Positions 1 through 51,108 of a stretch of DNA of 64,000 bases are shown piece after piece (within the stretch, counting starts at the first letter, position 1; the number at the start of each line of letters is the position of its first letter). Source of the DNA: Prevotellaceae bacterium. Lineage in GTDB: Bacteria > Bacteroidota > Bacteroidia > Bacteroidales > Bacteroidaceae. The notes under the pieces are model-generated. The model was not told the origin of the DNA and ran no database searches. It was given only the letters and a program-made list of their open reading frames with translations. The stretch lies in assembly GCA_015257125.1 (NCBI GenBank), contig JABZKU010000009.1:10473-74472 (forward strand), read 5' to 3'. A program made the translations under genes and the position numbers.

Positions 1-1113
1 TCCGGCATTGGTTCGGGCAACAATCCGGCATTGGCACGTGACGAAGCCATCGCTTCCACCGACAAAATCATCAGGGCACTCGCCGGAGAAACGATGATTT
101 TGTTCCTATTGGCCAGTTTCGGCGGAGGTGTCGGCACCGGTTGCACACCGGTCATCGCACGCATCGCACGAAGTCTCGGCATTACCACAACAGCGGTCGT
201 CACCACGCCATTTCTCTTCGAGGGCATCGAACACATCGACCGCGCGCTCGACGGTATTCAGGTTTTGGTCGAAGAAGTCGACAGTCTTTTGGTGATCAAC
301 AATGAGAAACTCCTCATTACCCACCCCGAACTCACGCTGCAGACCGCCTTTGCCAAATCCGATCTCGCACAAGCTGAACCTGTCGCCTCACTTTCGTCTA
401 TCACGGTCAACACCACCGCACCCGTAACCATCGGCCTTCGCCAAATGCGCGATTTTCTCGGGCGGGGCGGCGTAAGTTTTCATTCGGTCGGCTATGCACG
501 CGGCCCCGGACGCTTGACCCGTGCCATAGAAGACGCCCTGCGCTCCCCGCTCGTGGCCGACTATGACATCTATCGCGCCAAGTGCGTTGTCCTCTTTATC
601 CAATACAGCGAGCAATCCGTCGCCGGCAACGGCGAACCTCAAGAAGGACTCAAAATGGACGAACTTTCGGAAGTGAATCGCTTCTACGACTCGTTCTCCA
701 ATGAGATCGATTTCTACTGGGGATTGGCGCCCGACGAGACGTTAGGCGAATATGTCAGTGCCACGATCTTTGCCGGCGGTTTCAGTCTCGAGGACATCAG
801 CGGCATGCGCGACCATATTGATGCCACCACCACGGCTCGCGACCTCGTTCGCGCCAGAGAAGAAGCCATTCGCGAGCGAAGAAGGGCAGAATTCTACGGT
901 CTCAGCGACCCTTCCCCCCTGCCCTATCGTCGCCACGCCGTCTACATCTTCCAACCCGACGACCTCGACAACCCGGAAGTCATTCGCATGGTCGAATCTT
1001 CCCCCACCGGTCGTCGTTCTCCTGAGCTACACGCGCAAATCGTGCGCCGATCGCTCATCCCCCCTCCCCAATCATCCACCTCCGATTCGGAACAACCTCA
1101 CCAACATGTCTGA
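1..1113 (+). CDS. FtsZ-family (tubulin-like GTPase) paralog, 5' end truncated by the window
   Basis: Frame 1 is open from nt 1. The translation carries the FtsZ signature GGGVGTGCTPVIARIA (compare GGGTGTGAAPVIA in the downstream ftsZ) and the PFLFEG motif, and has a Pro-rich C-terminal tail. The stop overlaps the ftsZ start (ATGTCTGA). The T7-loop NxDFxD motif seems to be absent (TIGLRQMRDF in its place). Confidence 0.6.
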   Translation, partial: SGIGSGNNPALARDEAIASTDKIIRALAGETMILFLLASFGGGVGTGCTPVIARIARSLGITTTAVVTTPFLFEGIEHIDRALDGIQVLVEEVDSLLVINNEKLLITHPELTLQTAFAKSDLAQAEPVASLSSITVNTTAPVTIGLRQMRDFLGRGGVSFHSVGYARGPGRLTRAIEDALRSPLVADYDIYRAKCVVLFIQYSEQSVAGNGEPQEGLKMDELSEVNRFYDSFSNEIDFYWGLAPDETLGEYVSATIFAGGFSLEDISGMRDHIDATTTARDLVRAREEAIRERRRAEFYGLSDPSPLPYRRHAVYIFQPDDLDNPEVIRMVESSPTGRRSPELHAQIVRRSLIPPPQSSTSDSEQPHQHV

Positions 1114-2437
1114 TAACGCCTCCCATCCCAACGAAAAGAAACACTTCGAGCCCCTTGTGGAAATCACTCCCACCAAGAAACCTGAAGCCCCCGTAGCCAT
1201 CATCAAAGTCATCGGTGTCGGTGGCGGCGGCGGAAACGCCGTTAGCAACATGTATCGCGAGAATGTCGAAGGCGTTCGCTTCCTCGTCTGCAACACCGAC
1301 GCCAAAGCCCTTGCAGACTCTGCCGTCCCCAATCACGTACAACTCGGCCCCGGTCTCGGCGCCGGCGGACGCCCCGAACGCGGTCGCGCCTTGGCAGAGG
1401 AAAATGTCGAATCCATTCGCGAAGCCCTCGAAGACGACCTCAACATGGTGTTCATCACCGCAGGTATGGGTGGGGGTACCGGAACCGGTGCCGCCCCTGT
1501 CATTGCACGAGAGGCCATGGCCAAGGGCATTCTCACCGTCGGCATTGTCACCATCCCCTTCCTTTTCGAGCAAAAGCTGCAAGTCAACAAAGCACTCGAC
1601 GGCGTTGAGTGCATCAGTAAGGAGGTGGATGCCCTACTCATCGTCAACAACCAGCGTCTTTTCGACATCTATCGCGACCTCACTGTGAAAGATGCCTTCA
1701 AAAAGGCCGACGACACCCTCACCGACGCCGTGCGTTCCATCGTTGAGATCATCAATATGGGCGGAAGCGGCAGTGTAAATCTCGACTTCAGCGATGTCGA
1801 CACCTGCTTGCGCAAAGGTGGAGTGGCCGTCATGTCCACTGGTGTAGCCACCGGCGAAAACCGTCTGCGCAAAGCCATCGATGCCGCACTCGAATCGCCG
1901 CTGCTCAACGATCGCGACATCCAAGATTCCAAGTCGCTTCGCCTCGCCGTCTTCAGCCCCGAAGATCCGGTTCACACGTTGAAGATCGATGAAATGGATC
2001 ACATCGACAAGTTCATGAAGGACATCAACGCCAATGTCGATTTCAAATACGGCTTGGCCACCGATCCCACCCTCACCGACGACCAAGTACGCGTCATTGT
2101 CCTCGCCTCCGGCTTCCGCAATGTCACCGCCCACCTCACCGAAGAGGACAATCATCCCCTCACCGAAGAGGAAACCGAACGCATCAACGCCGAAAATGAG
2201 CGTATCAGCAACTACTACGGATGCGAAAAGGGCGAACGCACGCGCTACACCCGCTACTATGTCCTCAAACCCGAAGACCTCGACAACGAAGTGCTCATTT
2301 CCGACATCGAGAACATTCCCACCATTCGCCGCACCGATGGCGATTTGCGCCGCATCCGCCAAAACAGCAACAGCGCTGAGCCGGTGGTAGCCCCCACCCC
2401 CGCAGAGGAAGCCCCCCAAACTGAGCCCAACGAATAA
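1106..2437 (+). CDS. ftsZ: cell division protein FtsZ
   Basis: GVGGGGGNAV N-terminal P-loop, GGGTGTGAAPVIA, NLDFSDV T7 loop, and a C-terminal IPTIRR peptide. About 443 aa counted from the internal ATG at 1106; the ORF-track start at 752 would add an implausible Pro/Ser-rich leader. Confidence 0.85.
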   Translation: MSDNASHPNEKKHFEPLVEITPTKKPEAPVAIIKVIGVGGGGGNAVSNMYRENVEGVRFLVCNTDAKALADSAVPNHVQLGPGLGAGGRPERGRALAEENVESIREALEDDLNMVFITAGMGGGTGTGAAPVIAREAMAKGILTVGIVTIPFLFEQKLQVNKALDGVECISKEVDALLIVNNQRLFDIYRDLTVKDAFKKADDTLTDAVRSIVEIINMGGSGSVNLDFSDVDTCLRKGGVAVMSTGVATGENRLRKAIDAALESPLLNDRDIQDSKSLRLAVFSPEDPVHTLKIDEMDHIDKFMKDINANVDFKYGLATDPTLTDDQVRVIVLASGFRNVTAHLTEEDNHPLTEEETERINAENERISNYYGCEKGERTRYTRYYVLKPEDLDNEVLISDIENIPTIRRTDGDLRRIRQNSNSAEPVVAPTPAEEAPQTEPNE

Positions 2438-2552: not shown

Positions 2553-2999
2553 ATGCTTTTCGACCAGATCAGCACCGACATCATGTCGGCCATGAAAGCG
2601 CACGACAAGGTGCGCACACAAGCCCTCCGCAACGTCAAGAAATACTTCATCGAAGCAAAGACCGCTCCCGGCAGCAACGGTGAACTCACCGACGAAGCCG
2701 CAATGAAGATCCTCGCCAAACTCGCCAAGCAGGGACGCGACACCGCCGCCCTCTATACTGAGCAGAATCGCCCCGACCTCGCGGAGAGCGAACTCGCCGA
2801 AGTGGCCGTGATCGAGATCTACTTGCCCAAAGCCCTCACCGACGAGGAACTCACCGCCGCCCTCCGCGACATCATTGCCGAAGTTGGCGCCGCTTCGCCC
2901 AAAGACATGGGCAAAGTTATGGGCGTGGCTTCCAAACGCCTCGCCGGACGTGCCGACGGCCGCGCCATCAGCGAAAAGGTTAAGGCGCTCTTGGCCTAA
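2553..2999 (+). CDS. yqeY: GatB/YqeY domain protein
   Basis: MLFDQISTDIMSAMKAHDKVRTQALRNVK... matches the typical YqeY N-terminus. About 148 aa, immediately downstream of ftsZ as in other Bacteroidota. Confidence 0.75.
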   Translation: MLFDQISTDIMSAMKAHDKVRTQALRNVKKYFIEAKTAPGSNGELTDEAAMKILAKLAKQGRDTAALYTEQNRPDLAESELAEVAVIEIYLPKALTDEELTAALRDIIAEVGAASPKDMGKVMGVASKRLAGRADGRAISEKVKALLA

Positions 3000-3057
3000 A
3001 CCACCGCAAAAGCAGAAAGCGGCGACAGCAATTCGCCCCACTTTCCCCATTCACACA

Positions 3058-3098
3058 CGGGATTTGTCTTCAATCGCGAAGACAAATCCCGTTTTTTC
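3058..3098 (+). terminator. intrinsic terminator after yqeY
   Basis: Perfect 13-bp stem cgggatttgtcttc / gaagacaaatcccg with loop aatcgc, followed by TTTTTT. Confidence 0.6.
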
Positions 3099-13670: not shown

Positions 13671-13795
13671 TAACGAAATGTAGCCATACGAAAGTAGTCG
13701 CATGCGATATGAATCGCCATTGCGGCTCCTTTTGAATGAAGATGAACAGACGCACTTTCAAGGACTATAGCAACAAATTTCAATTTATCAGCAAT

Positions 13796-16700
13796 ATGCA
13801 AAGTACAAGTACCTCTAAGCAGTGGTTCTTCGGACTGTGTTGCACATTGTTGTTGTTATGCGCAAGCGCTCTCCCGTCGGCAGGACAAAACTGTCCGAAC
13901 TTCGGGTGGAACGACTTCACCAAGTCGATTGTGCAGCCCAACTTGGACTGCAACAAGCCGGGCGAGGTGACGATACGCTACAGCAACAACGTCGTCGGCG
14001 TCGACGAGGTGCACTATCAGTTCGGATCCGGAACCAGCGGCCCTTGGTTTCACGAAGTCGATGCCGCCGCGCCGGGATCGACCGTGAAGGCCGAAATCCC
14101 TACATCGATGAGCGGAAAATCGCTCTTTGTGCGCGTGACGACCAAGTGTGGCACCGACACCCGTTCCAATGTGTGGAACATGGGCAACATCATTGCTCAA
14201 AAGACGGAAACCATCACCCTACAAGGCTCGAGCACACCGGCCGGTAGCGGTACGGGGTCGAGTGGTGGTATCACCGTGTGGCTCAATGGCCCCTCGGGAA
14301 TCACAGAGGCCACCTTCAAGCTCTACAAGTGGCACGGCACTGCGGTGCTGGCCAGCCAACGCAGCACGCGCCCGTATGAGGGGGTGACGTTCTTCAATTT
14401 GGAGAAAGGCGACTACGAAGTGAAAGTAGAAGCCAAGCCGGCTTGTACCCCCACCACAACGGCTTCCAACTGGGACACGGATCACTTCAACCTCTCGAAG
14501 GTGATCTACGTCGGCTCATTTAATTTGCAGGTTACTTCTATCCCTGCACGCGGTACCTGTACCGGTGGTGTGAAAGTTGAGCCTTCGAAAGTGACGGGTG
14601 TGCAACAAATGGAGTACGTCCTCACCACACAGGCTGATCGCAACACCCCTATTCAAGCCTTTACGGCCAACTATCCTAATTTTGCCCACACCTTTACGGG
14701 CTTGCCGGCCGGACAATACACCGTGCGTGCGACAGAAAAGACCGGCAACAGCCAAGTGAGTTCGAACTTCAACGTAGGCAACCAAAATGCTTCGCCCGCT
14801 GTCACGGTCAACCACCACACTCTCCGTGGAGTGGCTGAAGGTGAGGTGAATATTCGCCTGGACAACACCACCGAGGCATGTCCGGCCAAACTGACCCTCA
14901 CGCGCGACAACACGACTTCGGGGTTGCCCTTCACCACGATGGTGAAGAACAACATCACCGAAGAAAACACGCTGTTCGAGGGACTTACCGAGGGTAACTA
15001 CACGATCACAGCCGAATATGGAGGTCAATCGTTCTCGGCGAAATTCGGTATCGCTCATTCGACCATGGGCTACTTGTACAACCGCGGCGTAACGCAGGCG
15101 AACAGCATCTGCGACCCTTCGGGTAGTGCCAACTGGTTGTTGTCGGGTGGTTTCTACTACAATCCGCTGGAAGTGAAGATCGTGGATCGCAACACGCAGA
15201 ACCTCGTTCGTAAATTCACACTTCCGGCAGGACAGACGTATTTCGAAACGAAGGGACTCTTCCCCGGCGACTACACGCTCACCGTGGGGTACGAAGCGGC
15301 GAACCAATTTACGACGTCTAATTTCTCGATTGCCCCGAAAGACAACGTACAGGGATACCTGAGTTTCGCGCTGGACGAGCCCACAGAATTTTGCGGCGAC
15401 CAACCGATGGCAAAAATCGCGGTGAACTTCATTGGTGCTGGTGGCATTGAAAACTACCCGGGCACACAAAAGTTCATGAACGGCGCCACTTTCGAAATCT
15501 ATGACGCCGAAGGCAACTTCTTGTACTCGGGCAACATGCCGCAACTGACGGGCAATGCGAAATCGACTATTGAAAGTCCCTTTGCCCCCAACAGAGGCCA
15601 AATCAAGGTGAAGCCGACTTGCGGTTACCCGATTCTCACTTACACGCTCTCCAGCATCAATGGAATGAAGGGAGCTTACCTCTTCAGCCCTGATTTCACC
15701 TATCGTGGCTGCGGAAGCCGCGGAACAAACGTGGATCTTCGCGTGCTGGACACCAAGAACAACGTGGTACCCCTCATTACCTACACGGTGAAGAAGAAAA
15801 CCGGGGAACTCATCGGCACCTACGAAATGAAGGAGGGGGTGAATACCGCCATCTTTGCCAACATGGAACCCGGTGACTACGACGTGGAATGGTATCCGCA
15901 ATGTAAGCCCGACCAGAAGCACCAAGAAACCTTCCGTGTGGAAGACAAGGTGAACGAAACAAGACGTGAAATTAGAGGAGCAGTCTGTGAAGATCAAGGT
16001 TATATTCGCATTGACTTCACCAGTTTCCGCAACATCAACGGCTGGCGCTACGAACTGATTCGAAAGAACGACAATAAACTGATGCGCGTCTATGGTAGTG
16101 TCAACAGCACTGTAGTTTCATTCGAACGCGTACCGGCCGGCGATTATATCGTGAAAGCCATTCCCATTGTGGAGTGTGGTGATATTACGCCCGGTGAATT
16201 TGAAGTCACTGTGCCTGCCATTACCGCCGGATCAGAAATCAGCGACCCTATCTACCTTTGGACTCGCGACGCCGATGCATTGCCTTTCCAATATGTGGGT
16301 AAGGTACGCTACTACACGCGTCTTCCATATAGTTATGTCAAATGGCGTGTGCTGGATGTGTCCACGAATGCCGAAATCAAGAAGGGCGAAGTGCATCCGG
16401 TGGCCAACAACACGGGCACCTTCCCCATCGTCGTAGAGGGATTGCCCCACACTTACAAAATTGAATTTGAGACCCCTTGCGGAACATACACACGCATCGA
16501 CTCGCTCAATTTGGCCAACCGCAAGCAATTGCCGGGCTTTGAACTAACCACCATTGCCGGTAACACCGAGTGCAACACAACGCCTTCGCTCACGGTGAAG
16601 TCGCGCCTGAAAGCGGCCGGGCTTCCCGACAAGGCCTCGAGAATCCAACTCTACAAGTACGTCGATAAGGGAGATGGCTACAAATGGCACTTTGACCAAG

Positions 16701-19700
16701 AGGTGGCGGATGCCAATGCGATCATCGAAACCAAGACCTTTGAGAACTTGGATCCCGGTATTCAATATTATGTGAACTACTTCTACGACGGAACGAGTGA
16801 CCGACAGCAGATTGGTATCCCCGGCAACGCAGGTACCATGTCAGTACCTGTGTATACGTCGAGCTTCAGCCCGAAGGGCACGGCCATCCTCACAGTGAAT
16901 CCCTACGCGGGGACTCCCGGTTCGACAATGGAGGTCGTGGTGACAGACAATCAGCAGAACGAAATCTTCAATAAGACGGTGTCGGCCACCGAAGCAACGA
17001 AGATCGAGGTGAAAAAGCCTGCCACCGGTTTTACGGTCAAGACCAAAGTGCTCAACGGCTGCTTTAAGGACAAGACGTTCACGTCGTACCTTTATCCTAC
17101 GACGACTCCCGTCTTTAGTTTCGACACGCGCACCAACAGGATGCAGTGTAAGAACGACGGTGAGATCACGATGATTTTGCCCGAGGCTTTCCACGATGTG
17201 GATCAAGTGCACTACACGCTGAAGAAAATAACGGGCACGCAATACACCGACGTGGCTGAAACGACGAAGCCAGCTGAACCGAAGACCTTCATCGGTCTGG
17301 AAGCCGGCACCTATGAGATCTCCGCTCGCGCAACAGTCTTCAAAGATGAGACCGGACAACCGAAGGTGATGGACTTCAAACGCAACGTGCAGCTCACGAC
17401 GCCTTATAGGGACGGTCTTTACGCTACGGTACGTCCGGACTACATGGTATCGACGCGAAGCGAATGCGCCCAAGGACGCATCGGTTTGAACATTGAAAAG
17501 GGATCGGGTAGATATCGCGTCTTCTTGAAGAAAACACCCGACGGTGTATTGCCCGAACCGAAGGAACTCTTCACCGATGGTATCTACTCCTCGATGCGCA
17601 ACAAGTTGTGGGGTGAAAACTTCAAGCCCGGTCACTATGCACTGACGGTGACGGATGGCTGTATGGAACGTGACATTCCCGATGCCGAGATTCTCGAAAT
17701 GCCGAACTTGGCCAGCGCTAGCTTCAACCGTTGGTATATGAACGGCGACAAGCGCATGAAGAAAGAACTCGGAGAAAAGGTTGACTCGTTCTTGTATCAA
17801 GTAAAATTCGACCCCTCTGCTTTCCCCGCCAGCTACCAACAGACGGCATACCGCTCTTATGAAGTGCAAGTCGTGGGTAAGGGGCAGGCTCCCGACGACA
17901 CCCAGTGGAAGAGCAACTGGAATACGCCCAACGATGGCCAAGCCATTCTGGACAACTACTCAAAGCGCTTCAATAACTGTGATGGCGTGGACATCTTGCT
18001 TCGCATGAAGAACTGTCCCGAGACCCTGATCCGCGTTCCGACTACGATCGATGTAATCAACATGTTCTACGGTAGTTGGCAATTGCTGAAGTGTAATACG
18101 GTGCAGTGGATTTTCACCGATGGTGAGATTGGCCATAAGTATCATCTGAAAGTCAAGAACACGACGGACAATGTGGTGGTTTACGAAAAAGACATCACCT
18201 ACACCTCACGCGAACAATACCTCACGCGCGATCCGGAGTTGGAATTCCCCTCTGACAAGAGTTATCACTTAGAGATGACACCGTCAGACTATTGTGGTAA
18301 TCCGGTCTATCACTCTCCCTACAACTTTAACCGCGTGGAACGTATTTACAGATACTCTTTGGACGATGGCCTCATCATGTCGGACTGCGATGGTCGCCGC
18401 TTGGCGATCTATGGCTGGACGGATTGTAAACTGCCGATGAAGTACTTCGTTTATGAAGTGACTGCTACCGGAGAGAATCTTGTTGCGCAAAGTGGTAACT
18501 ATGTTCCGGAAAGATGGTACAGCACCTATAAGTTCCTGAAAGATCACCGCTACATCATTCGCGTAGTAGAATACGGACAACCCGAAACGACTAAGATTGA
18601 TCTTGTAGACTTCACGCTCAACTATCGTTTGCCCAGCGGCTACAAAAAGTCTGTTGACTATTTATGGTCTACGCAAACGATGTGTGGCTCGGCTTATGAC
18701 GCTACGAAAAAAGCCTACAACCTGAATGCGCTTCATTGGTTCTTCGGTACGGCGGACTGGACAGGGGTTCCTCCCGTGGAGCAAAAGACCTACGTGACCA
18801 TCCCGAACATGAAGATCGTTGCCACACAAAAAGAGGCACCGCATCGCAAGTTTGTATCCACGAAAGTGAGTCGTTACAATACGACGTATATGAGACACGA
18901 AGCATGGAAGGAAGAACTTGCTGACGGATCACTCATCGACGCGGCTTATGCTCCGGAAGGTAAATACACCGTGGTGGCTCAAACGGATGGCTGCGGCGAG
19001 ATCAACTTGGGAGACGAGTACTTGGGACGCCCGACGATCGATCTCTCGGCTTCGACCGTAACTTCGGCTTGTGATGGTAAGTTTACGGTTACGCCGAAGG
19101 GCACAATCACTTACCATGGTAGCACCGAAGAAGCGGAAATTACTTCGTTCTACGTTCAAGGTGATAACGCCAATACGACTCGCAACTGGGGTCAATCCTT
19201 CGATACTTACCAACGCCTATTCACGCTGGTGGTTAACATGAAGCGCAAGAGCGACGGTAAGACTTGTACGACGACTTGGCCTTTCTCGATGAGCAACTAC
19301 GTGCTCGACTTTGACCAGTCTCAGAGCTTGAGTATGTTCTGCACCGACTCGGGTAAGGGTATCATCCACATGGCTCTGAAGGGTGGTAATGCACCTTATA
19401 CTTACAAGTTGATGTCTCTCGACGGTACGGAAATTGCCCGCAAGACTGTGCCCGGTGCCGTGGACTTCGAACATGGTAAGTTGGGTGAACGCTATCGTAT
19501 CACGGCTACCGATGCCTGCGGATTGACTTGGATTCACCAAGATGTGTTGCTGCAAGACCCTGCTGCAATTTCATCTTCGATGACTATCGAGACATCCTTC
19601 TGTGCCGGTGATCGGGCTAAACTTGCTGCCCGTGAATTTCCTGGTGCAACATACTTATGGCACTTGCCCGATGGTTCGACAAAAGCCGGCCGCGTAATTG

Positions 19701-20431
19701 AGTTCGAAGCCAAAACAGCGAATGCCGGTGAGTTTATCGTTGATATCCATCTGACAACTTGTACGGTAACGCTGTATGGTAAGCACACGGTTGGTATTGC
19801 AAGTATTAAAGAAGCCAGTGGTTTGATCCTCACACAACAAGCTTGCGCGGGTGAACCGGTTGCTTTCAATCTTGATCCTGCAAGCGCAACCATCGACGGT
19901 GAGAAAGCCGATGCGGATGAAATTGAATATCAGTGGGAACGTACTGCTACACCGGACGATGAGTCTACTTGGACTCCGATTCGCAATGCAACGGAACAGA
20001 ACCTGACATACAATGCCGCTGCCCCGGGTGTTTACTATGTTCGCCGTACGGCAAAAATCGGCGACTGTAAGGCGATCAGTGACCAATCAAAGTTGACGGT
20101 TATTGCGGGTATTAATGTCGCTATGACTCCGGATGAGCAGTCAAGAACGATCAATGATAAGAATCCCTTCACGCTCACGGCCGGTATTGTAACGGGTAAT
20201 CCGAATCGCACTTACCAATGGCAACGCAGTGCCGACAAGAAGCATTGGGTGAACATCGGTACAGATGAAACCTTCACCGAAACGAAGCGTTTTGGTAACA
20301 CGGTTTACTACCGTCGAATTGTTTCTGCCGGTGCATGTAGCATCGAAGGTCAACCGATCACGGTTCGTTTCAAGAAGCGTTGGCCGGCTTACATCAACCC
20401 GCAGGTTCGTCAGCGTACGCTCGATGATTAA
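13796..20431 (+). CDS. giant secreted cysteine-patterned repeat protein with SprB-like repeats (2211 aa from ATG 13796)
   Basis: N-terminal signal peptide (KQWFFGLCCTLLLLCASALPSAGQ), then ~20 repeated ~90-100 aa modules. Each module has a conserved Cys and a GG..Y.Y motif (e.g. CTDSGKGIIHMALKGGNAPYTYKL) resembling Pfam SprB repeats. It is a paralog of the minus-strand gene at 22077..28685. No recognisable T9SS type A/B CTD. Confidence 0.8.
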   Translation: MQSTSTSKQWFFGLCCTLLLLCASALPSAGQNCPNFGWNDFTKSIVQPNLDCNKPGEVTIRYSNNVVGVDEVHYQFGSGTSGPWFHEVDAAAPGSTVKAEIPTSMSGKSLFVRVTTKCGTDTRSNVWNMGNIIAQKTETITLQGSSTPAGSGTGSSGGITVWLNGPSGITEATFKLYKWHGTAVLASQRSTRPYEGVTFFNLEKGDYEVKVEAKPACTPTTTASNWDTDHFNLSKVIYVGSFNLQVTSIPARGTCTGGVKVEPSKVTGVQQMEYVLTTQADRNTPIQAFTANYPNFAHTFTGLPAGQYTVRATEKTGNSQVSSNFNVGNQNASPAVTVNHHTLRGVAEGEVNIRLDNTTEACPAKLTLTRDNTTSGLPFTTMVKNNITEENTLFEGLTEGNYTITAEYGGQSFSAKFGIAHSTMGYLYNRGVTQANSICDPSGSANWLLSGGFYYNPLEVKIVDRNTQNLVRKFTLPAGQTYFETKGLFPGDYTLTVGYEAANQFTTSNFSIAPKDNVQGYLSFALDEPTEFCGDQPMAKIAVNFIGAGGIENYPGTQKFMNGATFEIYDAEGNFLYSGNMPQLTGNAKSTIESPFAPNRGQIKVKPTCGYPILTYTLSSINGMKGAYLFSPDFTYRGCGSRGTNVDLRVLDTKNNVVPLITYTVKKKTGELIGTYEMKEGVNTAIFANMEPGDYDVEWYPQCKPDQKHQETFRVEDKVNETRREIRGAVCEDQGYIRIDFTSFRNINGWRYELIRKNDNKLMRVYGSVNSTVVSFERVPAGDYIVKAIPIVECGDITPGEFEVTVPAITAGSEISDPIYLWTRDADALPFQYVGKVRYYTRLPYSYVKWRVLDVSTNAEIKKGEVHPVANNTGTFPIVVEGLPHTYKIEFETPCGTYTRIDSLNLANRKQLPGFELTTIAGNTECNTTPSLTVKSRLKAAGLPDKASRIQLYKYVDKGDGYKWHFDQEVADANAIIETKTFENLDPGIQYYVNYFYDGTSDRQQIGIPGNAGTMSVPVYTSSFSPKGTAILTVNPYAGTPGSTMEVVVTDNQQNEIFNKTVSATEATKIEVKKPATGFTVKTKVLNGCFKDKTFTSYLYPTTTPVFSFDTRTNRMQCKNDGEITMILPEAFHDVDQVHYTLKKITGTQYTDVAETTKPAEPKTFIGLEAGTYEISARATVFKDETGQPKVMDFKRNVQLTTPYRDGLYATVRPDYMVSTRSECAQGRIGLNIEKGSGRYRVFLKKTPDGVLPEPKELFTDGIYSSMRNKLWGENFKPGHYALTVTDGCMERDIPDAEILEMPNLASASFNRWYMNGDKRMKKELGEKVDSFLYQVKFDPSAFPASYQQTAYRSYEVQVVGKGQAPDDTQWKSNWNTPNDGQAILDNYSKRFNNCDGVDILLRMKNCPETLIRVPTTIDVINMFYGSWQLLKCNTVQWIFTDGEIGHKYHLKVKNTTDNVVVYEKDITYTSREQYLTRDPELEFPSDKSYHLEMTPSDYCGNPVYHSPYNFNRVERIYRYSLDDGLIMSDCDGRRLAIYGWTDCKLPMKYFVYEVTATGENLVAQSGNYVPERWYSTYKFLKDHRYIIRVVEYGQPETTKIDLVDFTLNYRLPSGYKKSVDYLWSTQTMCGSAYDATKKAYNLNALHWFFGTADWTGVPPVEQKTYVTIPNMKIVATQKEAPHRKFVSTKVSRYNTTYMRHEAWKEELADGSLIDAAYAPEGKYTVVAQTDGCGEINLGDEYLGRPTIDLSASTVTSACDGKFTVTPKGTITYHGSTEEAEITSFYVQGDNANTTRNWGQSFDTYQRLFTLVVNMKRKSDGKTCTTTWPFSMSNYVLDFDQSQSLSMFCTDSGKGIIHMALKGGNAPYTYKLMSLDGTEIARKTVPGAVDFEHGKLGERYRITATDACGLTWIHQDVLLQDPAAISSSMTIETSFCAGDRAKLAAREFPGATYLWHLPDGSTKAGRVIEFEAKTANAGEFIVDIHLTTCTVTLYGKHTVGIASIKEASGLILTQQACAGEPVAFNLDPASATIDGEKADADEIEYQWERTATPDDESTWTPIRNATEQNLTYNAAAPGVYYVRRTAKIGDCKAISDQSKLTVIAGINVAMTPDEQSRTINDKNPFTLTAGIVTGNPNRTYQWQRSADKKHWVNIGTDETFTETKRFGNTVYYRRIVSAGACSIEGQPITVRFKKRWPAYINPQVRQRTLDD

Positions 20432-21936: not shown

Positions 21937-23232
21937 TTTTTCGAACTGCTATATCCATAGACAAAACAAAGGCGTCCGTATCAAAACTTTCGTTTGATAC
22001 GGACGCCAATTATTTTGTCCTTTTCAGCAAAGCAGAATCTAATACTAGTAATTTCTGCTCTGAAGAAAATCAAGGTTTAATCATCGAGCGTACGCTGACG
22101 AACCTGCGGGTTGATGTAAGCCGGCCAACGCTTCTTGAAACGAACCGTGATCGGTTGACCTTCGATGCTACATGCACCGGCAGAAACAATTCGACGGTAG
22201 TAAACCGTGTTACCAAAACGCTTCGTTTCGGTGAAGGTTTCATCTGTACCGATGTTCACCCAATGCTTCTTGTCGGCACTGCGTTGCCATTGGTAAGTGC
22301 GATTCGGATTACCCGTTACAATACCGGCCGTGAGCGTGAAGGGATTCTTATCATTGATCGTTCTTGACTGCTCATCCGGAGTCATAGCGACATTAATACC
22401 CGCAATAACCGTCAACTTTGATTGGTCACTGATCGCCTTACAGTCGCCGATTTTTGCCGTACGGCGAACATAGTAAACACCCGGGGCAGCGGCATTGTAT
22501 GTCAGGTTCTGTTCCGTTGCATTGCGAATCGGAGTCCAAGTAGACTCATCGTCCGGTGTAGCAGTACGTTCCCACTGATATTCAATTTCATCCGCATCGG
22601 CTTTCTCACCGTCGATGGTTGCGCTTGCAGGATCAAGATTGAAAGCAACCGGTTCACCCGCGCAAGCTTGTTGTGTGAGGATCAAACCACTGGCTTCCTT
22701 AATACTTGCAATACCAACAGTATGTTTACCATACAGCGTTACCGTACAAGTTGTCAGATGAATATCAACGATAAACTCACCGGCATTCTCTGTTTTGGCT
22801 TCGAACTCGATTTCGCGGCCGGCTTTTGTAGAACCATCGGGCAAGTGCCATAAGTAAGTTGCACCAGGGAATTCGCGCGCTGCAAGTTTAGCCCGATCAC
22901 CGGCACAGAAGGAGGTCTCGACAGTCATCGAAGATGAAATTGCATCAGGGTCTTGCAGCAACACATCTTGGTGAATCCAAGTCAATCCGCAGGCATCGGT
23001 AGCCGTGATACGATAGCGTTCACCCAACTTACCATGTTCGAAGTCCACGGCACCGGGCACAGTCTTGCGGGCAATTTCCGTACCGTCGAGAGACATCAAC
23101 TTGTAAGTATAAGGTGCATTACCACCCTTCAGAGCCATGTGGATGATACCCTTACCCGAGTCGGTGCAGAACATACTCAAGCTCTGAGACTGGTCAAAGT
23201 CGAGCACGTAGTTGCTCATCGAGAAAGGCCAG
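21937..23232. repeat. right arm of the ~1.3-kb inverted repeat (3' end of giant gene 2 plus 3'UTR)
   Basis: Mirror image of 19276..20571; the stop codons map onto each other (20429 <-> 22079). Confidence 0.8.
21961..22007 (-). terminator. intrinsic terminator of giant gene 2 (mirror copy)
   Basis: Same 15-bp stem as at 20501, with a T-tract on the minus strand (acaaaacaaa on the top strand). Confidence 0.65.
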
Positions 23233-26200
23233 GTCATCGTACATGTCTTACCGTCGCTCTTGCGCTTGATGTTCAAAACCAAGGTAAACTCACGCTGATA
23301 AGTACCGAAAGACTGTCCCCAGTTGCGAGTTGTGTTATAGCTGTCACCCTGAACATAGAAAGATGTAATTTCCACGTCTTCCGTACTTCCAAGATAAGTC
23401 AGCGTACCCTTAGGTGTTACCGTAAACTTACCGTCACAAGCGGCATCTACCGTCGTGGCGCTGAGGTCGAGAATCGGGCGACCGATGTAGTCGTCTTCCA
23501 TCGGAATGTCACCACAATCGGTGTGCGCCACCACAGTGTATTCGCCTTCCGGAGCGTAGGCATCGATCAATGTACCATCAGGCAACTCTTCCTTCCACGA
23601 ATAGCGGTACATAGTAGTTGAGTAGCGCGTTACGCTTGTTGCAACGAACTTACGTGTAGGATTAGCTTTCGGACGAGCTACGATCGTCATCTTCGGAATC
23701 GTCAAATAGGTCTTCTGCTCCACTGCAGGAACTCCATCCCAACTTGGATAGAAGTAGCTCGAGAAATTATTCATGTAGTAACCATTCTTGGAAGCGGTGT
23801 AGCCATTACCACAGAAGGTTTGGCCTTTGAACGTATAATCTCTCGACACCGTGTACTTTGAAGGTAAACGATAGTTGAGCGTGAAGTCAACGAGTAGATC
23901 CTTTGTGGTTTCGGGTTGACCGTATTCCACCACGCGAATGACATACTTCTTGTCCTTCTTGAACTTGTAAGGGCTGTACCATACTTCAGGAACATAGTTA
24001 CCACTCTCGCTTACGAGTGTTTCCTGCGTACCATTTACCTCATAAGCGTAGTACTTGAGAGGCAGCCTACAGTCTGTCCAACCCCGGATGGCCAAAAGAC
24101 GACCATCGCAATCCGACATAATACTTTGACCATAGTCAAGTGAGTACTGATAGTTACGATTGATCGCATTGAAATATCTCGTTGTTCCATAAATCGGGTC
24201 ACCACAATAATCTGTCGGCGTCATGTCGATGCGATAACTCTTATTTGCGGGAAACTCGAGATCAGGATCACGAGTGAGGTATTGTTCACGAGAAGTATAG
24301 TTTACTTCTTTGTCCACTAGTACAACATTATCCGTTGTACGAGTAACCTTTATCTTGTACTTGTGACCAATTTCACCATCGGTGAATACCCACTGTACCG
24401 TATTACACTTTAGTTGTTGCCAAAAACCACTAAAAGCATAACGAATATCTCGATTATCGGTAATACGCGTCAGCGTGGCCGGACAGTTCTTCAAACGAAG
24501 AAGGACGTCTACCCCATTACAATTATCGAAACGTTTCGAATAATCGCTAATATAGGATTTACCATCGTTACTGTCGCCCCAGCTGCTCTTCCACTGACTA
24601 TCATCAGGGGCAGCCCCTTTCGCTACTACTTGAATTTCGTAGGCGCGATAGGCTGTCTGGCGGAAACCTTCAGGGAAGTCCGAGGGGTCGAATCTTAAGT
24701 AGTAATTGACAGAATCTCGAGTTTCGTCTTTTTTGTTTCTCAGACGAGAATCCAAGCGCAGCTCCCACCAGGCCCAAGTAATCTTGGGTGTGTTGGGCAT
24801 TTCGAGAATCTCTGCATCTGGGATATCACGTTCCATACAGCCATCCGATACGGTCAGCGCGTAATGGCCGGGCTTCAATCCGCTACCCCAAAGCTTATTA
24901 TAATAATTTGTTCCGATCGGGTCAGTGAAAATTTCACGAGGCTTAGTCAAAACACCTTCGTCAGGGGTCTTCGTCAAGAAGACGCGATACTTACCGGAGC
25001 CCTTTTCGATGTTCAAACCGATGCGACCGTTGGGACATTCGTCTCTGGTCGGCACCATATAATCCGGGCGCACCGTGGCATAGAGACCATCTCGATAAGG
25101 TGTGCTCAACGTTATGGTCTGTTCAAAGTCTTGCACCTGAGGTTGGCCATTTTCGTCTTTGAAGACAGTGGCACGACCGGTCACCTTGTACGTACCGGCT
25201 TCCAGACCGATGAAGGTCTTCGGTTCACCGGGCTTCGTGGTTTCGGCCACGTCGGTATATTGCGAACCGGTGGTCTTCGTCAGCGTATAGTGGATTTGAT
25301 CCACGTCGTGGAAGGACTCCGGCACCACCATGGTGATTTCACCGTCGTTCTTACACTTCATGTTGTTTTTACGAAGCGAGAAGCTAAACTTCGTACCTTG
25401 GCGCGGTGTATTCCACGTGCTGGCAGATTTACCGGCCATACAGCCGTCTACCATCGTTGCTTCGGCAGTAAAAGAACCATACGGTTTACGCACATCGAAG
25501 TTATAAGGTGCATCGGCGGGAACTTCGCCATTGAAGAGTTCGGTGCCGTCCGTGCTCTTGATAACCAAACGCATCTTTGTACCCGGTTCGGCCGGATTGA
25601 TGCGAGCCGTAAGCGTAGAAACACCCTTCAAGCTGAAGTCCGTAGAATTCAATTGAAGGCTCAAATTTGATGTTTCTCCAATATTGATGCCTTGGAAATA
25701 ATCACTCGTTCCGTTGTAGTAATAACGAATGGCATAGGAACCGGACTCCAATTCGGTGAAAGTGTGGCTTTCGATGATAGAAGTCGGATTGGTTTCTTCC
25801 TTCAAAGGACGATAGGCAGCGTTTCCGTCGACCACCGTGTATTTGTACAGGACGATCTTCGTAGCCTTTTCGGGCAGCCCGGCTGACTTCAACTTAGAGA
25901 GCACCGTAATATACCCCTTCTTATTGCAAGTTGTGTTCACGCTACCCAGGAAGTAGCTAAAACCGGGCATGTTCTTGCGGTTATCCAAATAGAGAGAATC
26001 CAAACGGGTATATTTACCGCAAGGAGTTTCAAACTCAATGTTGTAAGTGTGCGGCAATTTATCTACAACAAAGCCGAAACCACCTGTCTGTGTTTTTGAG
26101 GGACGTGCTTCCCCCTTGTTGAGTTCAGCTCCGGTCACCACATCCAGCACACGCCATTTTATATTATCCAGCGGATAGACAGAATAGTAACGTGCCTTAC

Positions 26201-28685
26201 CATCATTCTGATAGGGTGTGGGGTTCTGGTCGCGAGTCCAAAGATAGATGTAGTTTTCTTGCGGTTTTTCTTTGGGCACGGTGACCTCAAATGAACCGGG
26301 GGTAATCTCTCCACACGTTACGATAGGAGTAGACTTCACAATATAATTACCGGCAGGAACGCGGCTGAAATAAACACTGCTTGTCTGTCCGGAACCGTAG
26401 ACGCGCACCACATTACCTGTGGCCTTGTCTACCAATTCGTGGCGCCAAGCATTGATGTTGGTAAAGTTGTAAAAACTGATGGATATAGCGCCCTCTTCAC
26501 CACAACGAGCAGGAGTTACATTGCGGTTCAATTCTTTAACCGTATCTTCAACGCGGAACTCATCGGTGTGTTTCTGCGTGGGGGCACATTGCGGCCACCA
26601 CTCCACTTTATAATCACCGGGCTGCATGTTGGCGAAGATTGCTGTATTCACACCCTCCTTCATCACATACTCACCTACCAAAGCACCGGTAGCCTTGTCG
26701 GTTACCTTGTAAGTCATGAGCGGAGCCACTTGCCCTTTCATATCGAGGACACGCAAATCCACGTCGGTTCCCGTACCACCGCAACCTCGGAAGGTAAAGT
26801 TCGGGCTAAACTTGTAGCCGGAGTTACCATACATCGTGTAGTCCTGGTAGGGATAACCACAAGCTGACTTCACACGAAGTCTATAATAAGGCTCTGCAAC
26901 CGGCGTTTCGATGTAACTTGCCGCGTTACCGGTCAACGCAGGCATTGCACCGGAATACTGGAAAACACCTTGCTGATTATAGATTTCAAATGTTGCCCCA
27001 TTGAGGAACGAAGAAAGCATGGGGGCATTCTCGACACCTCCGGTTCCCGTGTACTTCACGGGAATGCGCATCATCGGCTTTTCGCCGCAGAAATCGGTGC
27101 TAACCGCCGTGCTGTTAAAGTCAAACGAGAGATTCCCTTCGAGAGAATTCTTCAGACCGATATCGAAGTCTAATTTCGTCTCCAATCCGGAGCTCTCATG
27201 ACGTGCCGTGACCGTGTACTCTCCCGGGAAGAGGCCTTTGACTTCCACCGTTCTTTCACCGGCGGGTTGAGTCCATTCTTTCACCAAAGCACCACCATCA
27301 CGATAGGTGACACGCATCTTCAGCGGGGCATAATAAATGCCATTGTAGAGATACCAAACTTGTCCACCGGAGGCCTCACACAATCTATTGGCAGGCGTAA
27401 TTGAGCTATACGAAAAATAGCCGAGAGTACCTTCACTGATCTGGAAGTTGCTCGTCTTCGTGATGCCACCGTATTCGGCTTTCACCTGATAATTTCCCTT
27501 CGGGAGATTTTCGATAAGGGTGACTTCTTCGGTCACATTCGTCTTCACGACGGGCGTGAAGGCCACCCCATCCGTGCGCGTAATGGTCAGCTTGGCGGGG
27601 CAAGCCTCAGTAGTGTTTGGCAATTGGATATTGACCGCTCCTTCGTTTACGCCGGGCAGTGTTCCGTGCTGAACGTTGGCATAGACATCATTCTCTTGAT
27701 TGTAAATGTTGAAGTAGTTGGTCATCGAGCTGTTGCCCGTCTTTTCCGTCGCCTTTAAGACATAGTTACCGGCTTGCACTCCCGTGAAAGTGTGGGAAAA
27801 GTTCGGGTAGGTGGCCGTAAACGTCTGAACCGGTGTATCAGGCGTACTTTGATTGGCAATGGTGTACTCAATGTTCTGCACACCCGTCACTTTCGACACC
27901 TCGACTTTGACACCACCCGGGCAAGTACCGCGGGCAGGAATCTGCGTGGTCACCAAATTGAAGGAACCCACCGAGATGCCGGAAGACAGATTAAAGTGGT
28001 CCGTATCCCAATTGGAGGGCGGATTGGCCGGGGTACAAGAAGGCTTGGCTTCCGCCTTCACCACATAGTCGCCCTTGGGCAAATTGAAGAACGTCACGCC
28101 ATCATAGGGACGCGTGGAACGCTGAGATTGAATGACCGTGTTCTGGTCATCGAATTTGTAGAGCTTAAAGGTGGCTTCCGTAAAACCGGTGGGACCGACC
28201 AAGGAGGCTTGCACACCACCACTTGCACCCGTACCACTACCGGCGGGTGTACTGCTCACACTCAGTCTAATATCCTGAGCCTTTTGCGATGAGACACCCG
28301 ACATGTTCCACCAGTCTGTGCGTGTATTCGTACCGCATGTGGTCGTGATACGCACATAAAGTGTCTTGCCGTTCATGCTTGCCGGAATGTCCGCTTTGAC
28401 GGTCGCACCCGGTGCCGGCGCATCGACCGTTTCAAACCAAGGGCCGTTCGGTCCGGAACCGAATTGATACTTCACTTCGTCCACTCCGACGATGTTGTTG
28501 CTGTAGCGTATGGAAACGGTTCCCGGCGTATTACAGTCCGAGTTGGGCTGCATTTGCGACTTCGTAAAATCGTTCCATTGGAAATTCGGGCAATTCTGCC
28601 CCACTGCGGGGAGACTACCCAAACAGAGCAACAATGTACAGAGGAGCCCGAAGATGCTTGATCTTAGGGGAATTGTTTTCTCCAT
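22077..28685 (-). CDS. giant secreted cysteine-patterned repeat protein with SprB-like repeats (2202 aa), paralog of 13796..20431
   Basis: Signal peptide MEKTIPLRSSIFGLLCTLLLCLGSLPAVGQ, with N-terminal ~100 aa about 75% identical to giant 1. Internal blocks range from ~50% to ~85% identity, and the C-terminal ~385 aa are near identical. Confidence 0.8.
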   Translation of the reverse strand: MEKTIPLRSSIFGLLCTLLLCLGSLPAVGQNCPNFQWNDFTKSQMQPNSDCNTPGTVSIRYSNNIVGVDEVKYQFGSGPNGPWFETVDAPAPGATVKADIPASMNGKTLYVRITTTCGTNTRTDWWNMSGVSSQKAQDIRLSVSSTPAGSGTGASGGVQASLVGPTGFTEATFKLYKFDDQNTVIQSQRSTRPYDGVTFFNLPKGDYVVKAEAKPSCTPANPPSNWDTDHFNLSSGISVGSFNLVTTQIPARGTCPGGVKVEVSKVTGVQNIEYTIANQSTPDTPVQTFTATYPNFSHTFTGVQAGNYVLKATEKTGNSSMTNYFNIYNQENDVYANVQHGTLPGVNEGAVNIQLPNTTEACPAKLTITRTDGVAFTPVVKTNVTEEVTLIENLPKGNYQVKAEYGGITKTSNFQISEGTLGYFSYSSITPANRLCEASGGQVWYLYNGIYYAPLKMRVTYRDGGALVKEWTQPAGERTVEVKGLFPGEYTVTARHESSGLETKLDFDIGLKNSLEGNLSFDFNSTAVSTDFCGEKPMMRIPVKYTGTGGVENAPMLSSFLNGATFEIYNQQGVFQYSGAMPALTGNAASYIETPVAEPYYRLRVKSACGYPYQDYTMYGNSGYKFSPNFTFRGCGGTGTDVDLRVLDMKGQVAPLMTYKVTDKATGALVGEYVMKEGVNTAIFANMQPGDYKVEWWPQCAPTQKHTDEFRVEDTVKELNRNVTPARCGEEGAISISFYNFTNINAWRHELVDKATGNVVRVYGSGQTSSVYFSRVPAGNYIVKSTPIVTCGEITPGSFEVTVPKEKPQENYIYLWTRDQNPTPYQNDGKARYYSVYPLDNIKWRVLDVVTGAELNKGEARPSKTQTGGFGFVVDKLPHTYNIEFETPCGKYTRLDSLYLDNRKNMPGFSYFLGSVNTTCNKKGYITVLSKLKSAGLPEKATKIVLYKYTVVDGNAAYRPLKEETNPTSIIESHTFTELESGSYAIRYYYNGTSDYFQGINIGETSNLSLQLNSTDFSLKGVSTLTARINPAEPGTKMRLVIKSTDGTELFNGEVPADAPYNFDVRKPYGSFTAEATMVDGCMAGKSASTWNTPRQGTKFSFSLRKNNMKCKNDGEITMVVPESFHDVDQIHYTLTKTTGSQYTDVAETTKPGEPKTFIGLEAGTYKVTGRATVFKDENGQPQVQDFEQTITLSTPYRDGLYATVRPDYMVPTRDECPNGRIGLNIEKGSGKYRVFLTKTPDEGVLTKPREIFTDPIGTNYYNKLWGSGLKPGHYALTVSDGCMERDIPDAEILEMPNTPKITWAWWELRLDSRLRNKKDETRDSVNYYLRFDPSDFPEGFRQTAYRAYEIQVVAKGAAPDDSQWKSSWGDSNDGKSYISDYSKRFDNCNGVDVLLRLKNCPATLTRITDNRDIRYAFSGFWQQLKCNTVQWVFTDGEIGHKYKIKVTRTTDNVVLVDKEVNYTSREQYLTRDPDLEFPANKSYRIDMTPTDYCGDPIYGTTRYFNAINRNYQYSLDYGQSIMSDCDGRLLAIRGWTDCRLPLKYYAYEVNGTQETLVSESGNYVPEVWYSPYKFKKDKKYVIRVVEYGQPETTKDLLVDFTLNYRLPSKYTVSRDYTFKGQTFCGNGYTASKNGYYMNNFSSYFYPSWDGVPAVEQKTYLTIPKMTIVARPKANPTRKFVATSVTRYSTTMYRYSWKEELPDGTLIDAYAPEGEYTVVAHTDCGDIPMEDDYIGRPILDLSATTVDAACDGKFTVTPKGTLTYLGSTEDVEITSFYVQGDSYNTTRNWGQSFGTYQREFTLVLNIKRKSDGKTCTMTWPFSMSNYVLDFDQSQSLSMFCTDSGKGIIHMALKGGNAPYTYKLMSLDGTEIARKTVPGAVDFEHGKLGERYRITATDACGLTWIHQDVLLQDPDAISSSMTVETSFCAGDRAKLAAREFPGATYLWHLPDGSTKAGREIEFEAKTENAGEFIVDIHLTTCTVTLYGKHTVGIASIKEASGLILTQQACAGEPVAFNLDPASATIDGEKADADEIEYQWERTATPDDESTWTPIRNATEQNLTYNAAAPGVYYVRRTAKIGDCKAISDQSKLTVIAGINVAMTPDEQSRTINDKNPFTLTAGIVTGNPNRTYQWQRSADKKHWVNIGTDETFTETKRFGNTVYYRRIVSAGACSIEGQPITVRFKKRWPAYINPQVRQRTLDD

Positions 28686-33285: not shown

Positions 33286-33417
33286 CGTAAGGATCGTATA
33301 TGCAGGAAAAAGAGGTTTATTTTGTAGTCGTTTTCGTGCCGCGGGCGTGCTAAACATCACTTGTTTGCACGCCTCTTCGGCAGATCGAAAACAGAAGTAG
33401 AAATAGCCGGAAGCAAA

Positions 33418-38971: not shown

Positions 38972-39132
38972 TTTGAATAGGAATTTGTTAGTTCGAAATA
39001 TATAGAATTGACTGCCGGCACTCTTCAGCAGGAGGAAAATAGGCGTCTCCCGACGATGCTGCTTCAGACGTTACCTGGATGTTCTAAAACAAAGCGGGGA
39101 ATTCTTGCGAACTCCCCACAGTCGATTGATTG

Positions 39133-39204
39133 TAGTCCCTAGGAGAGTCGAACTCCTCTTTTGAGAATGAAAATCTCACGTCCTAACCGATAGACGAAGG
39201 GACC
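39133..39204 (-). tRNA. tRNA-Glu (anticodon TTC)
   Basis: The minus-strand sequence GTCCCTTCGTCTATCGGTTAGGACGTGAGATTTTCATTCTCAAAAGAGGAGTTCGACTCTCCTAGGGACT folds as a cloverleaf. Anticodon loop TTTTCAT and T-arm GGAGTTCGACTCTCC. CCA is not encoded. Confidence 0.8.

Positions 39205-47130: not shown

Positions 47131-51108
<3,978 letters not shown>

Follow-up and report, generated by a model that had tools for sequence, protein, structure and literature searches.

We studied a stretch of 64,000 nucleotides (nt) from an uncultured gut Prevotellaceae bacterium (assembly GCA_015257125.1, contig JABZKU010000009.1, positions 10,473 to 74,472 of the forward strand), referred to in its whole length as the window. 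Its first 2,437 nt carry two tandem genes of the FtsZ family with overlapping stop and start codons, as an initial annotation of the sequence had noticed. We named them Zu, for the upstream FtsZ-fold gene, and Zd, for the downstream ftsZ. The window start cuts into Zu, whose frame (frame 1) reads without interruption from base 1 to a TGA at 1111-1113. The open reading frame (ORF) of Zd runs in frame 2 from an ATG at 1106 to position 2437 and encodes 443 amino acids (aa). The N-terminus of Zu had been placed outside the window, and this was correct: the first 94 codons lie upstream, and the whole gene of 464 codons was found at L001:8614-10008, on a contig with an identical Zd. The full-length Zu ORF, taken from contigs with an identical Zd, was 99.2% identical to the window part. 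The features of the locus are as follows.

1-1113, plus strand: window part of Zu, codons 95-464 and the stop codon of a 464-aa degenerate FtsZ paralog.
121-141, plus strand: T4 loop (G-box) of Zu, GGGVGTG (string GGGVGTGCTPVIA), where canonical FtsZ has GGGTGTG; direct reading.
424-447, plus strand: T7-equivalent of Zu, VTIGLRQM, from alignment to Pseudomonas aeruginosa FtsZ (PDB 2vaw, INVDFADV) and from the multiple alignment.
943-1017, plus strand: conserved C-terminal motif of Zu, YIFQPDDLDNPEVIRMVESSPTGRR, a tail motif common to Zu, Zd and single-copy Bacteroidales FtsZ.
1106-1113, plus strand: 8-nt overlap ATGTCTGA, holding the Zd start codon and the Zu stop codon.
1106-2437, plus strand: Zd, canonical ftsZ of the downstream-copy family, with T1-T7 intact and 294.2 bits against the NCBIfam ftsZ model TIGR00065.
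2553-2999, plus strand: yqeY, encoding a GatB/YqeY-domain protein (Pfam YqeY, E = 1.7e-43; gene calls on L001).
3057-3092, plus strand: strong terminator-like hairpin with a 15-bp stem and a T run, 3' of yqeY.

Both Zu and Zd matched Pfam Tubulin PF00091 and TIGR00065, and therefore their paralogy is far beyond chance. BLASTP aligned the two proteins over 346 aa with 34% identity (E = 2e-52); the similarity reported by the initial annotation was thus real, and its figure of 35-40% was slightly high. The window part of Zu reached 77.3 bits against PF00091 (cut-off 33, E = 2.5e-21). The FtsZ C-terminal domain PF12327 scored 21.5 bits in Zu, below the gathering score of 27, and is visible in the structure model; a precomputed listing has it for the orthologs P0003 and P0008 and lacks it for P0001 and P0002. 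Against TIGR00065, whose curated equivalog cut-off is 295.2 bits, the window part of Zu scored 139 bits, full-length Zu 170.5 bits and the ortholog P0008 170.9 bits. The canonical Zu proteins of sister lineages scored 305-310 bits and Zd proteins 289-301 bits, the window Zd falling just short of the cut-off and Zd of Alloprevotella sp. oral taxon 473 scoring 289.2 bits. Annotation based on this model may therefore miss the FtsZ name for Zd-type genes. Zu departs from an FtsZ equivalog not only in this score, but also at T7, at T1 and in the exact G-box of T4.

The upstream copy had been described as lacking the Asn and Asp residues of the T7 loop, and alignment to 2vaw bore this out: the positions of E. 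coli N207, D209 and D212 are occupied in Zu by Thr (427-429), Gly (433-435) and Gln (442-444). All strings quoted at the time were located in the window, GGGVGTGCTPVIA, PFLFEG and TIGLRQMRDF in Zu and NLDFSDV in Zd. Across the family, the T7 positions read T-I-G/D-L-R-Q in the window species and A-I-D-L-R-K, P-V-D-F-R-I and D-L-D-L-E-S in the orthologs. The Asn and the second Asp are missing in all degenerate Zu proteins; the first Asp persists in P0002, P0003 and P0008 and in a minority of the window-species sequences, most of which have Gly instead. The degeneration extends to other loops. In T1, the canonical GGGGGN has become GQGGIK (GHGGIK in P0008), in T2 NTD has become DTD by an Asn to Asp change, and T4 in each of the four degenerate lineages has Val for Thr, with its glycines retained. 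The motif table and the multiple alignment placed the T7 loss, T1 GQGGIK, T2 DTD and T4 GGGVGTG in Zu of the window lineage only. This degenerate-Zu lineage comprises four species-level groups, all of them from metagenomes and uncultured. Among 80 columns conserved to at least 95% in 37 canonical FtsZs, 46 were kept in Zu of all four degenerate groups, 19 were changed in all four and 15 were mixed, and the changes cluster in T1, T2, T4 and T7. No further divergent or intermediate degenerate Zu was found beyond the four lineages in a representative search of 1.84 billion proteins, a word-index search with P0008 and a scan of metagenome contigs; in the representative library, the score falls from 761 to 261 bits past the Zu family. 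A supposed loss of the guanine-contacting Asp of H7 (ADDT to SDLA) was withdrawn, as canonical FtsZs vary at the altered position, and Zu still has the near-invariant Asp (D215).

Zd retains T1-T7, including VNLDFSDV at 1775-1798 (NLDFSDV at 1778-1798), and is presumably catalytically active, judging from these motifs. The Zd family has two signatures, a one-residue deletion in T3 and a change of T5 from FEG to FEM, FEQ or FER. In the Zd-type FER group (P0148, P0160 and P0170), the T7 loop reads VGLDFRDV, in which the Asn equivalent to N207 has become Gly and both Asp residues are retained; in the other paralog, too, part of T7 has changed, independently of Zu.

Zu nevertheless keeps much of what makes an FtsZ. 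The AlphaFold2 model of Zu had a mean predicted local distance difference test (pLDDT) score of 82, with core residues 45-360 mostly above 85, and the top 50 hits of a Foldseek search of the PDB with this model were all FtsZ, at target-normalised TM-scores of 0.78-0.93. The modelled fold is that of FtsZ and not that of TubZ, tubulin or CetZ. Among the pocket residues, the glycines of T3 GxGxG and of T4, PFxFE of T5, the Asn of T6, and Phe F211 and Asp D215 of H7 are retained. The positions of E. coli F137, L178, M206, L272 and F275, which are subunit contacts in a filament crystal (PMC7010359), are all still hydrophobic in Zu. The C-terminal motif region is 50-60% identical between the most distant Zu orthologs and is modelled as helices with pLDDT 82-90; we presume it to be the FtsA-binding peptide region. 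At the other end, Zu carries an extension of about 25 aa of its own, with KRxRK followed by IDLDAQP, which is predicted to be disordered and is 60-70% conserved in the four lineages. Within residues 1-42 (L001:8614-8740, outside the window), a basic patch precedes IDLDAQP, and IDLDAQP resembles a repeat of the (L/I)(V/I)D(L/M/F)G motif found ahead of the canonical Bacteroidales FtsZ core.

On the full contigs, the gene order is murG-murC-ftsQ-ftsA-Zu-Zd-yqeY-recJ-recQ, with products of 478 aa for ftsA, 464 aa for Zu and 443 aa for Zd. The suggestion that the paralog stands in place of ftsA was therefore mistaken: ftsA lies directly upstream of Zu, and the division and cell wall (dcw) cluster reads ftsQ-ftsA-Zu-Zd-yqeY. 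The survey of related genomes proposed with that suggestion likewise recovered ftsA and the paralog together, as well as canonical tandem pairs in Alloprevotella-related lineages. We found the ftsA-Zu-Zd arrangement in 22 contigs with an identical Zd, in two GTDB metagenome-assembled genomes (CAUTYW01 and CAUQEF01, where the identity of Zu is 99% and 82%, respectively) and in 17 short-read metagenome loci. The gene yqeY is the usual 3' neighbour of ftsZ in this group, and the G+C content of the locus is about 55%. A scan of L001:6900-10100 detected nothing resembling a terminator in the interval from ftsA to the beginning of Zd, and the hairpin at 3057-3092 likely ends the ftsA/Zu/Zd/yqeY transcription unit. 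The overlap of Zu and Zd suggests translational coupling, as the initial annotation had proposed from the window. An identical or similar overlap is present in the P0003-type species, in L014 (ATGCCTGA) and in L017 (ATGA), whereas the L010-type species, L019 (Alloprevotella sp. oral taxon 473), L020 and L022 lack it. In the species with 82% identity (L010:7350-7400 and L029), a change of GAA-CAA to GAA-TAA makes Zu seven codons shorter; with this early stop the overlap is gone, and 11 nt separate Zu from Zd.

Zu is under purifying selection and is not a pseudogene. The ratio of nonsynonymous to synonymous divergence (dN/dS), calculated by the Nei-Gojobori method, was 0.11 for Zu and 0.05 for Zd within the species (L009), 0.17 and 0.09 between the window species and L010, and 0.32 and 0.11 between the window species and L014, where ftsA gave 0.14; the overall ranges were 0.11-0.32 for Zu and 0.05-0.13 for Zd. 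An ORF of 457-470 aa is kept in the four species-level lineages at a synonymous divergence above 1, and the orthologs at 82% (P0002), 75% (P0003) and 51% (P0008) identity carry the same T1 and T4 changes. The ORF was intact in 16 of the 17 short-read metagenome loci, and in the 17th it reaches the contig end. Apparent signs of a pseudogene in single assemblies were rejected: the split upstream gene in L016 is a scaffold N-gap, the short gene call in L015 is an N-run, and the frameshifts in L039-L043 come from noisy long-read assemblies, in which the neighbouring genes are broken likewise.

The tandem pair is older than its degenerate form. The order ftsA-Zu-Zd-yqeY with both copies canonical was found in L017, L019 (Alloprevotella sp. 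oral taxon 473, the named assembly GCA_000318095.2), L020, L021 and L022, with the pairs at L017:4682-7278, L019:3428-6275, L020:3704-6272 and L022:3555-6209. L017 is the nearest relative outside the four degenerate groups; both of its proteins have intact T1-T7, and its Zd is 63% identical to the window Zd. Prevotella L011 and L013 have a single copy in the order ftsQ-ftsA-ftsZ-yqeY. Among the best 120 database matches to the window Zd, 75 cluster representatives fell into the Zd clade (79 members with references), and the downstream-type family is large. Neighbour-joining analysis separated a Zu and Zd clade from single-copy Prevotella FtsZ (bootstrap 81), with Zd monophyletic (100), canonical Zu monophyletic (98) and L017 sister to the window lineage (98). 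These results show that an ancestral tandem ftsZ duplication in Alloprevotella-related Prevotellaceae gave rise to Zu and Zd, and that the degeneration of Zu is confined to the window's lineage, both copies being canonical in most lineages. Single-copy Prevotellaceae FtsZ shares 59-65% identity with canonical Zu and 45-54% with Zd, and in the lineages with canonical pairs dN is 0.17-0.26 for Zu and 0.33-0.36 for Zd, indicating that the upstream copy was formerly the more conservative FtsZ. Sequence comparison thus points to a reversal of the roles of the two copies in the window lineage, where the formerly conservative Zu is now the degenerate one. The upstream gene had been taken as a paralog added to the genuine ftsZ; the history looks the other way round, with the upstream copy the more canonical one in sister lineages.

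The degenerate Zu is most probably a fast-evolving descendant of the upstream copy, as indicated by synteny, profile scores and the T3 indel: it scored 343-381 bits with canonical Zu and 256-296 bits with core Zd, and it lacks the one-residue T3 deletion common to all Zd-type proteins. The same evidence disfavours Zu as a recent copy of Zd or as a foreign FtsZ. One observation points the other way, namely that the neighbour-joining tree places degenerate Zu, on a long branch, weakly beside Zd (bootstrap 61; 46-61 across trees), which is probably long-branch attraction. Diagnostic columns were uninformative on the origin, with 6 ancestral, 5 Zd-like and 21 other cells in degenerate Zu.

Because the fold, the hydrophobic longitudinal contacts and the tail motif have all been preserved in Zu, it is read most economically as a non-catalytic co-subunit or cap; with moderate confidence, we propose a role in which Zu, itself unable to hydrolyse GTP, modulates the filaments of Zd as a subunit or cap. 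The idea of a non-hydrolysing partner or regulator had been put forward from the T7 loss; it was reasonable on that ground, but the degeneration is wider than T7 and includes T1, T2 and T4. Under the proposed mechanism, Zu would be co-expressed with Zd from the dcw operon, FtsA would hold it at the membrane via the tail, and it would associate longitudinally with Zd, either as a subunit of a co-polymer or as an end cap. Without the Asn and Asp residues, the T7 loop of Zu could not activate GTP hydrolysis in the subunit beneath, and the GTP on that subunit would stay unhydrolysed. Zd would supply the GTPase activity, and Zu would tune the nucleation, stability or treadmilling of the Z ring. In E. 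coli, T7 mutants bind GTP and assemble abnormally (PMC3684127), and the GTPase activity of D212A is down to about 7% (PMC8142252, citing earlier work). A further observation concerns the Zd residue at the position of E. coli K141, which is Leu in exactly the four degenerate-Zu lineages and K/R in most other FtsZs compared. In the crystal filament of E. coli FtsZ, K141 and R142 of one subunit touch D209 and D212 of the adjoining one (PMC7010359), and the co-occurrence of this Leu with the T7 loss in Zu is a weak hint that the bottom face of Zu may dock on the top face of Zd.

Several points weigh against the co-subunit or cap reading. The correlation between the change of K141 to Leu and the loss of D212 is a single evolutionary event, and the K141 contacts come from a loose R-state crystal filament. 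The stop/start overlap of Zu and Zd is not conserved between lineages. The top face of Zu has Glu or Pro at the canonical Lys141, and T4 has Val for Thr, which makes it uncertain whether Zu binds nucleotide and accepts a subunit on top; the Glu or Pro also makes a capping role more plausible than the stacking of Zd on Zu. Finally, Zu evolves 2-3 times faster than Zd and its T7 positions are polymorphic within the window species, suggesting that selection on it is partly relaxed. A stronger form of partnership is an obligate, tubulin-like heterodimer, in which the dead T7 of Zu would keep GTP permanently trapped at the Zd-Zu interface, as at the N-site of tubulin, and the T7 of Zd would hydrolyse GTP at the other interface. 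We regard this version as quite improbable. If it were true, the relatives would preserve the steps from a single ftsZ through two active copies to one non-catalytic copy, a bacterial replay of the possible origin of the division of labour between alpha- and beta-tubulin.

The rapid change of Zu could also mean that it is a decaying redundant copy without a specific function, dispensable after Zd took over division. This would fit its faster evolution, the 53% identity between the window species and L014 (86% for Zd), the dN/dS of up to 0.32, the variable T7 positions and the premature stop that removed seven codons in the L010-type species, and the two FtsZ copies of Segatella copri DSM 18205 are functionally redundant (bioRxiv 10.64898/2026.04.17.719208). 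However, dN/dS is far below 1 in all comparisons, the ORF persists at 457-470 aa in four lineages with no frameshift or internal stop in any short-read assembly, 46 of the 80 canonical invariant columns are retained, and even the lineage-specific N-terminal extension is 60-70% conserved, so that we think simple decay improbable. The conserved extension with KRxRK and IDLDAQP would instead suit a neofunctionalised scaffold independent of Zd, which would form non-dynamic assemblies of its own or engage other partners through the extension, with a role in morphology or the envelope. The charge changes on the top face of Zu, which may disfavour Zd stacking on it, lend themselves to this view, and in Segatella sanihominis depletion of a reduced second FtsZ changes morphology with no filamentation (bioRxiv 10.64898/2026.04.17.719208). 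Yet the tail motif of Zu is the same as in Zd and single-copy FtsZ, the gene stays inside the dcw operon overlapping Zd, and the hydrophobic residues of the longitudinal interface are retained; we consider such a scaffold unlikely, if somewhat less so than decay. An artefact, whether a misassembled duplication, a chimeric contig or an error-ridden ftsZ copy, has a negligible chance of explaining the pair. We rejected it, and with it the concern about misassembly raised at the outset, because the two proteins are merely 34% identical and the arrangement recurs in dozens of assemblies produced independently by different studies, as well as in the two GTDB metagenome-assembled genomes; the orthologs at 82%, 75% and 51% identity moreover carry the same substitutions.

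Compared with canonical FtsZ as defined by TIGR00065, Zu is alike in its Tubulin/FtsZ GTPase domain, FtsZ fold, dcw site after ftsA, Bacteroidales-type tail and most pocket residues, but it differs in its score (170 against 295 bits), in the altered T7, T1, T2 and T4 and in the extra conserved N-terminal segment. The pairs of the Alloprevotella sp. oral taxon 473 type have the same ftsA-Zu-Zd-yqeY order and a Zd of the same family (clade bootstrap 100), whereas both of their copies have intact T1-T7 and Zu is the slower-evolving one there. The second ftsZ of Segatella is likewise an extra Prevotellaceae copy, and in S. sanihominis FtsZ2 is reduced and has a non-filamentation phenotype (bioRxiv 10.64898/2026.04.17.719208); these copies are, however, strain- or species-specific, and that of S. 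sanihominis is truncated, whereas Zu is full length. The E. coli T7 mutants D209A and D212A/G/N are changed at the same positions, bind GTP and have very low GTPase activity (PMC8142252, PMC3684127), but they are laboratory point mutants of an otherwise canonical protein, while Zu has many more changes and a wild-type-like partner. The thaumarchaeal FtsZ of Nitrosopumilus maritimus (Nmar_1262) is the closest natural counterpart as a degenerate FtsZ, likewise without a conserved T7 loop; unlike Zu, it further lacks the GTP-binding signature, does not polymerise and occurs in a Cdv-dividing archaeon without a canonical FtsZ partner (PMC3684127).

Alpha/beta-tubulin and BtubA/B are built from two paralogous subunits; T7 is non-catalytic in one of them, which leaves one inter-subunit GTP site non-hydrolysable. 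By analogy, the catalytic asymmetry of Zu and Zd would in principle be of the same kind. The differences are that the best structural matches of Zu are all FtsZ, that the pocket of Zu itself is altered while that of beta-tubulin is not, and that a Zu-Zd heterodimer is hypothetical. In chloroplasts and archaea, FtsZ1 and FtsZ2 have divided roles in one division ring and form heteropolymers (PMC8142252; bioRxiv 10.1101/2020.06.04.133736). In contrast to Zu and Zd, both members keep a catalytic T7, their genes are non-adjacent and the duplications are independent. Zu does not belong with FtsZl1/FtsZl2 (Makarova and Koonin 2010, PMC2875224) or TubZ/PhuZ, which are marked by a Tubulin_2-type domain or TubZ-like fold and a non-dcw context, because Pfam gives PF00091 and PF12327 only, the best matches are bona fide FtsZ and the context is dcw. 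The few bacteria with two ftsZ genes have the extra copy outside dcw (FtsZ evolution survey, PMC9871819), and a 2026 preprint has multiple ftsZ genes as reported only in archaea. Our literature search found no description of the Alloprevotella/Bacteroidetes tandem ftsZ pair or of a degenerate derivative, and a second ftsZ in Prevotellaceae for Segatella strains alone (bioRxiv 2026).

Elsewhere in the window, two convergent giant ORFs at 13736-20431 (plus strand) and 22077-28685 (minus strand) encode proteins of 2231 and 2202 aa, which are 66% identical over about 2190 aa. Pfam gave almost no signal, just a weak SpaA/prealbumin-like match near residues 170-230 and a weak C-terminal match to the CHU_C-associated Ig_7, and the two are probably large secreted surface or adhesin proteins. 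The housekeeping content, all on the minus strand, includes a tRNA-Glu(TTC) at 39132-39204, a glycoside hydrolase family 2 (GH2) beta-galactosidase with a ricin-type lectin domain at 47131-51078, a type IA topoisomerase at 33967-36327, an arginine decarboxylase at 31393-33357 and DsbD at 59406-61472. Rfam and tRNA scans identified no rRNA in the window.

The bacterial Z ring is generally assumed to consist of a single FtsZ. Here, a tandem ftsZ pair in the dcw cluster is a feature of an entire Alloprevotella-related branch of the Prevotellaceae, and in one sub-lineage of this branch the formerly principal copy appears to have become a conserved protein with a non-catalytic T7, while the other copy would have kept the GTPase. 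The branch thus offers a natural series for studying the sub-functionalisation of a cytomotive filament, the effects of a T7-dead subunit on treadmilling in vivo and, by analogy, the asymmetry of alpha/beta-tubulin. There is also a consequence for annotation, in that automatic pipelines may call either, both or neither of the two genes FtsZ, and the pair is also relevant to FtsZ-directed knock-down and inhibitor work in gut Prevotellaceae.

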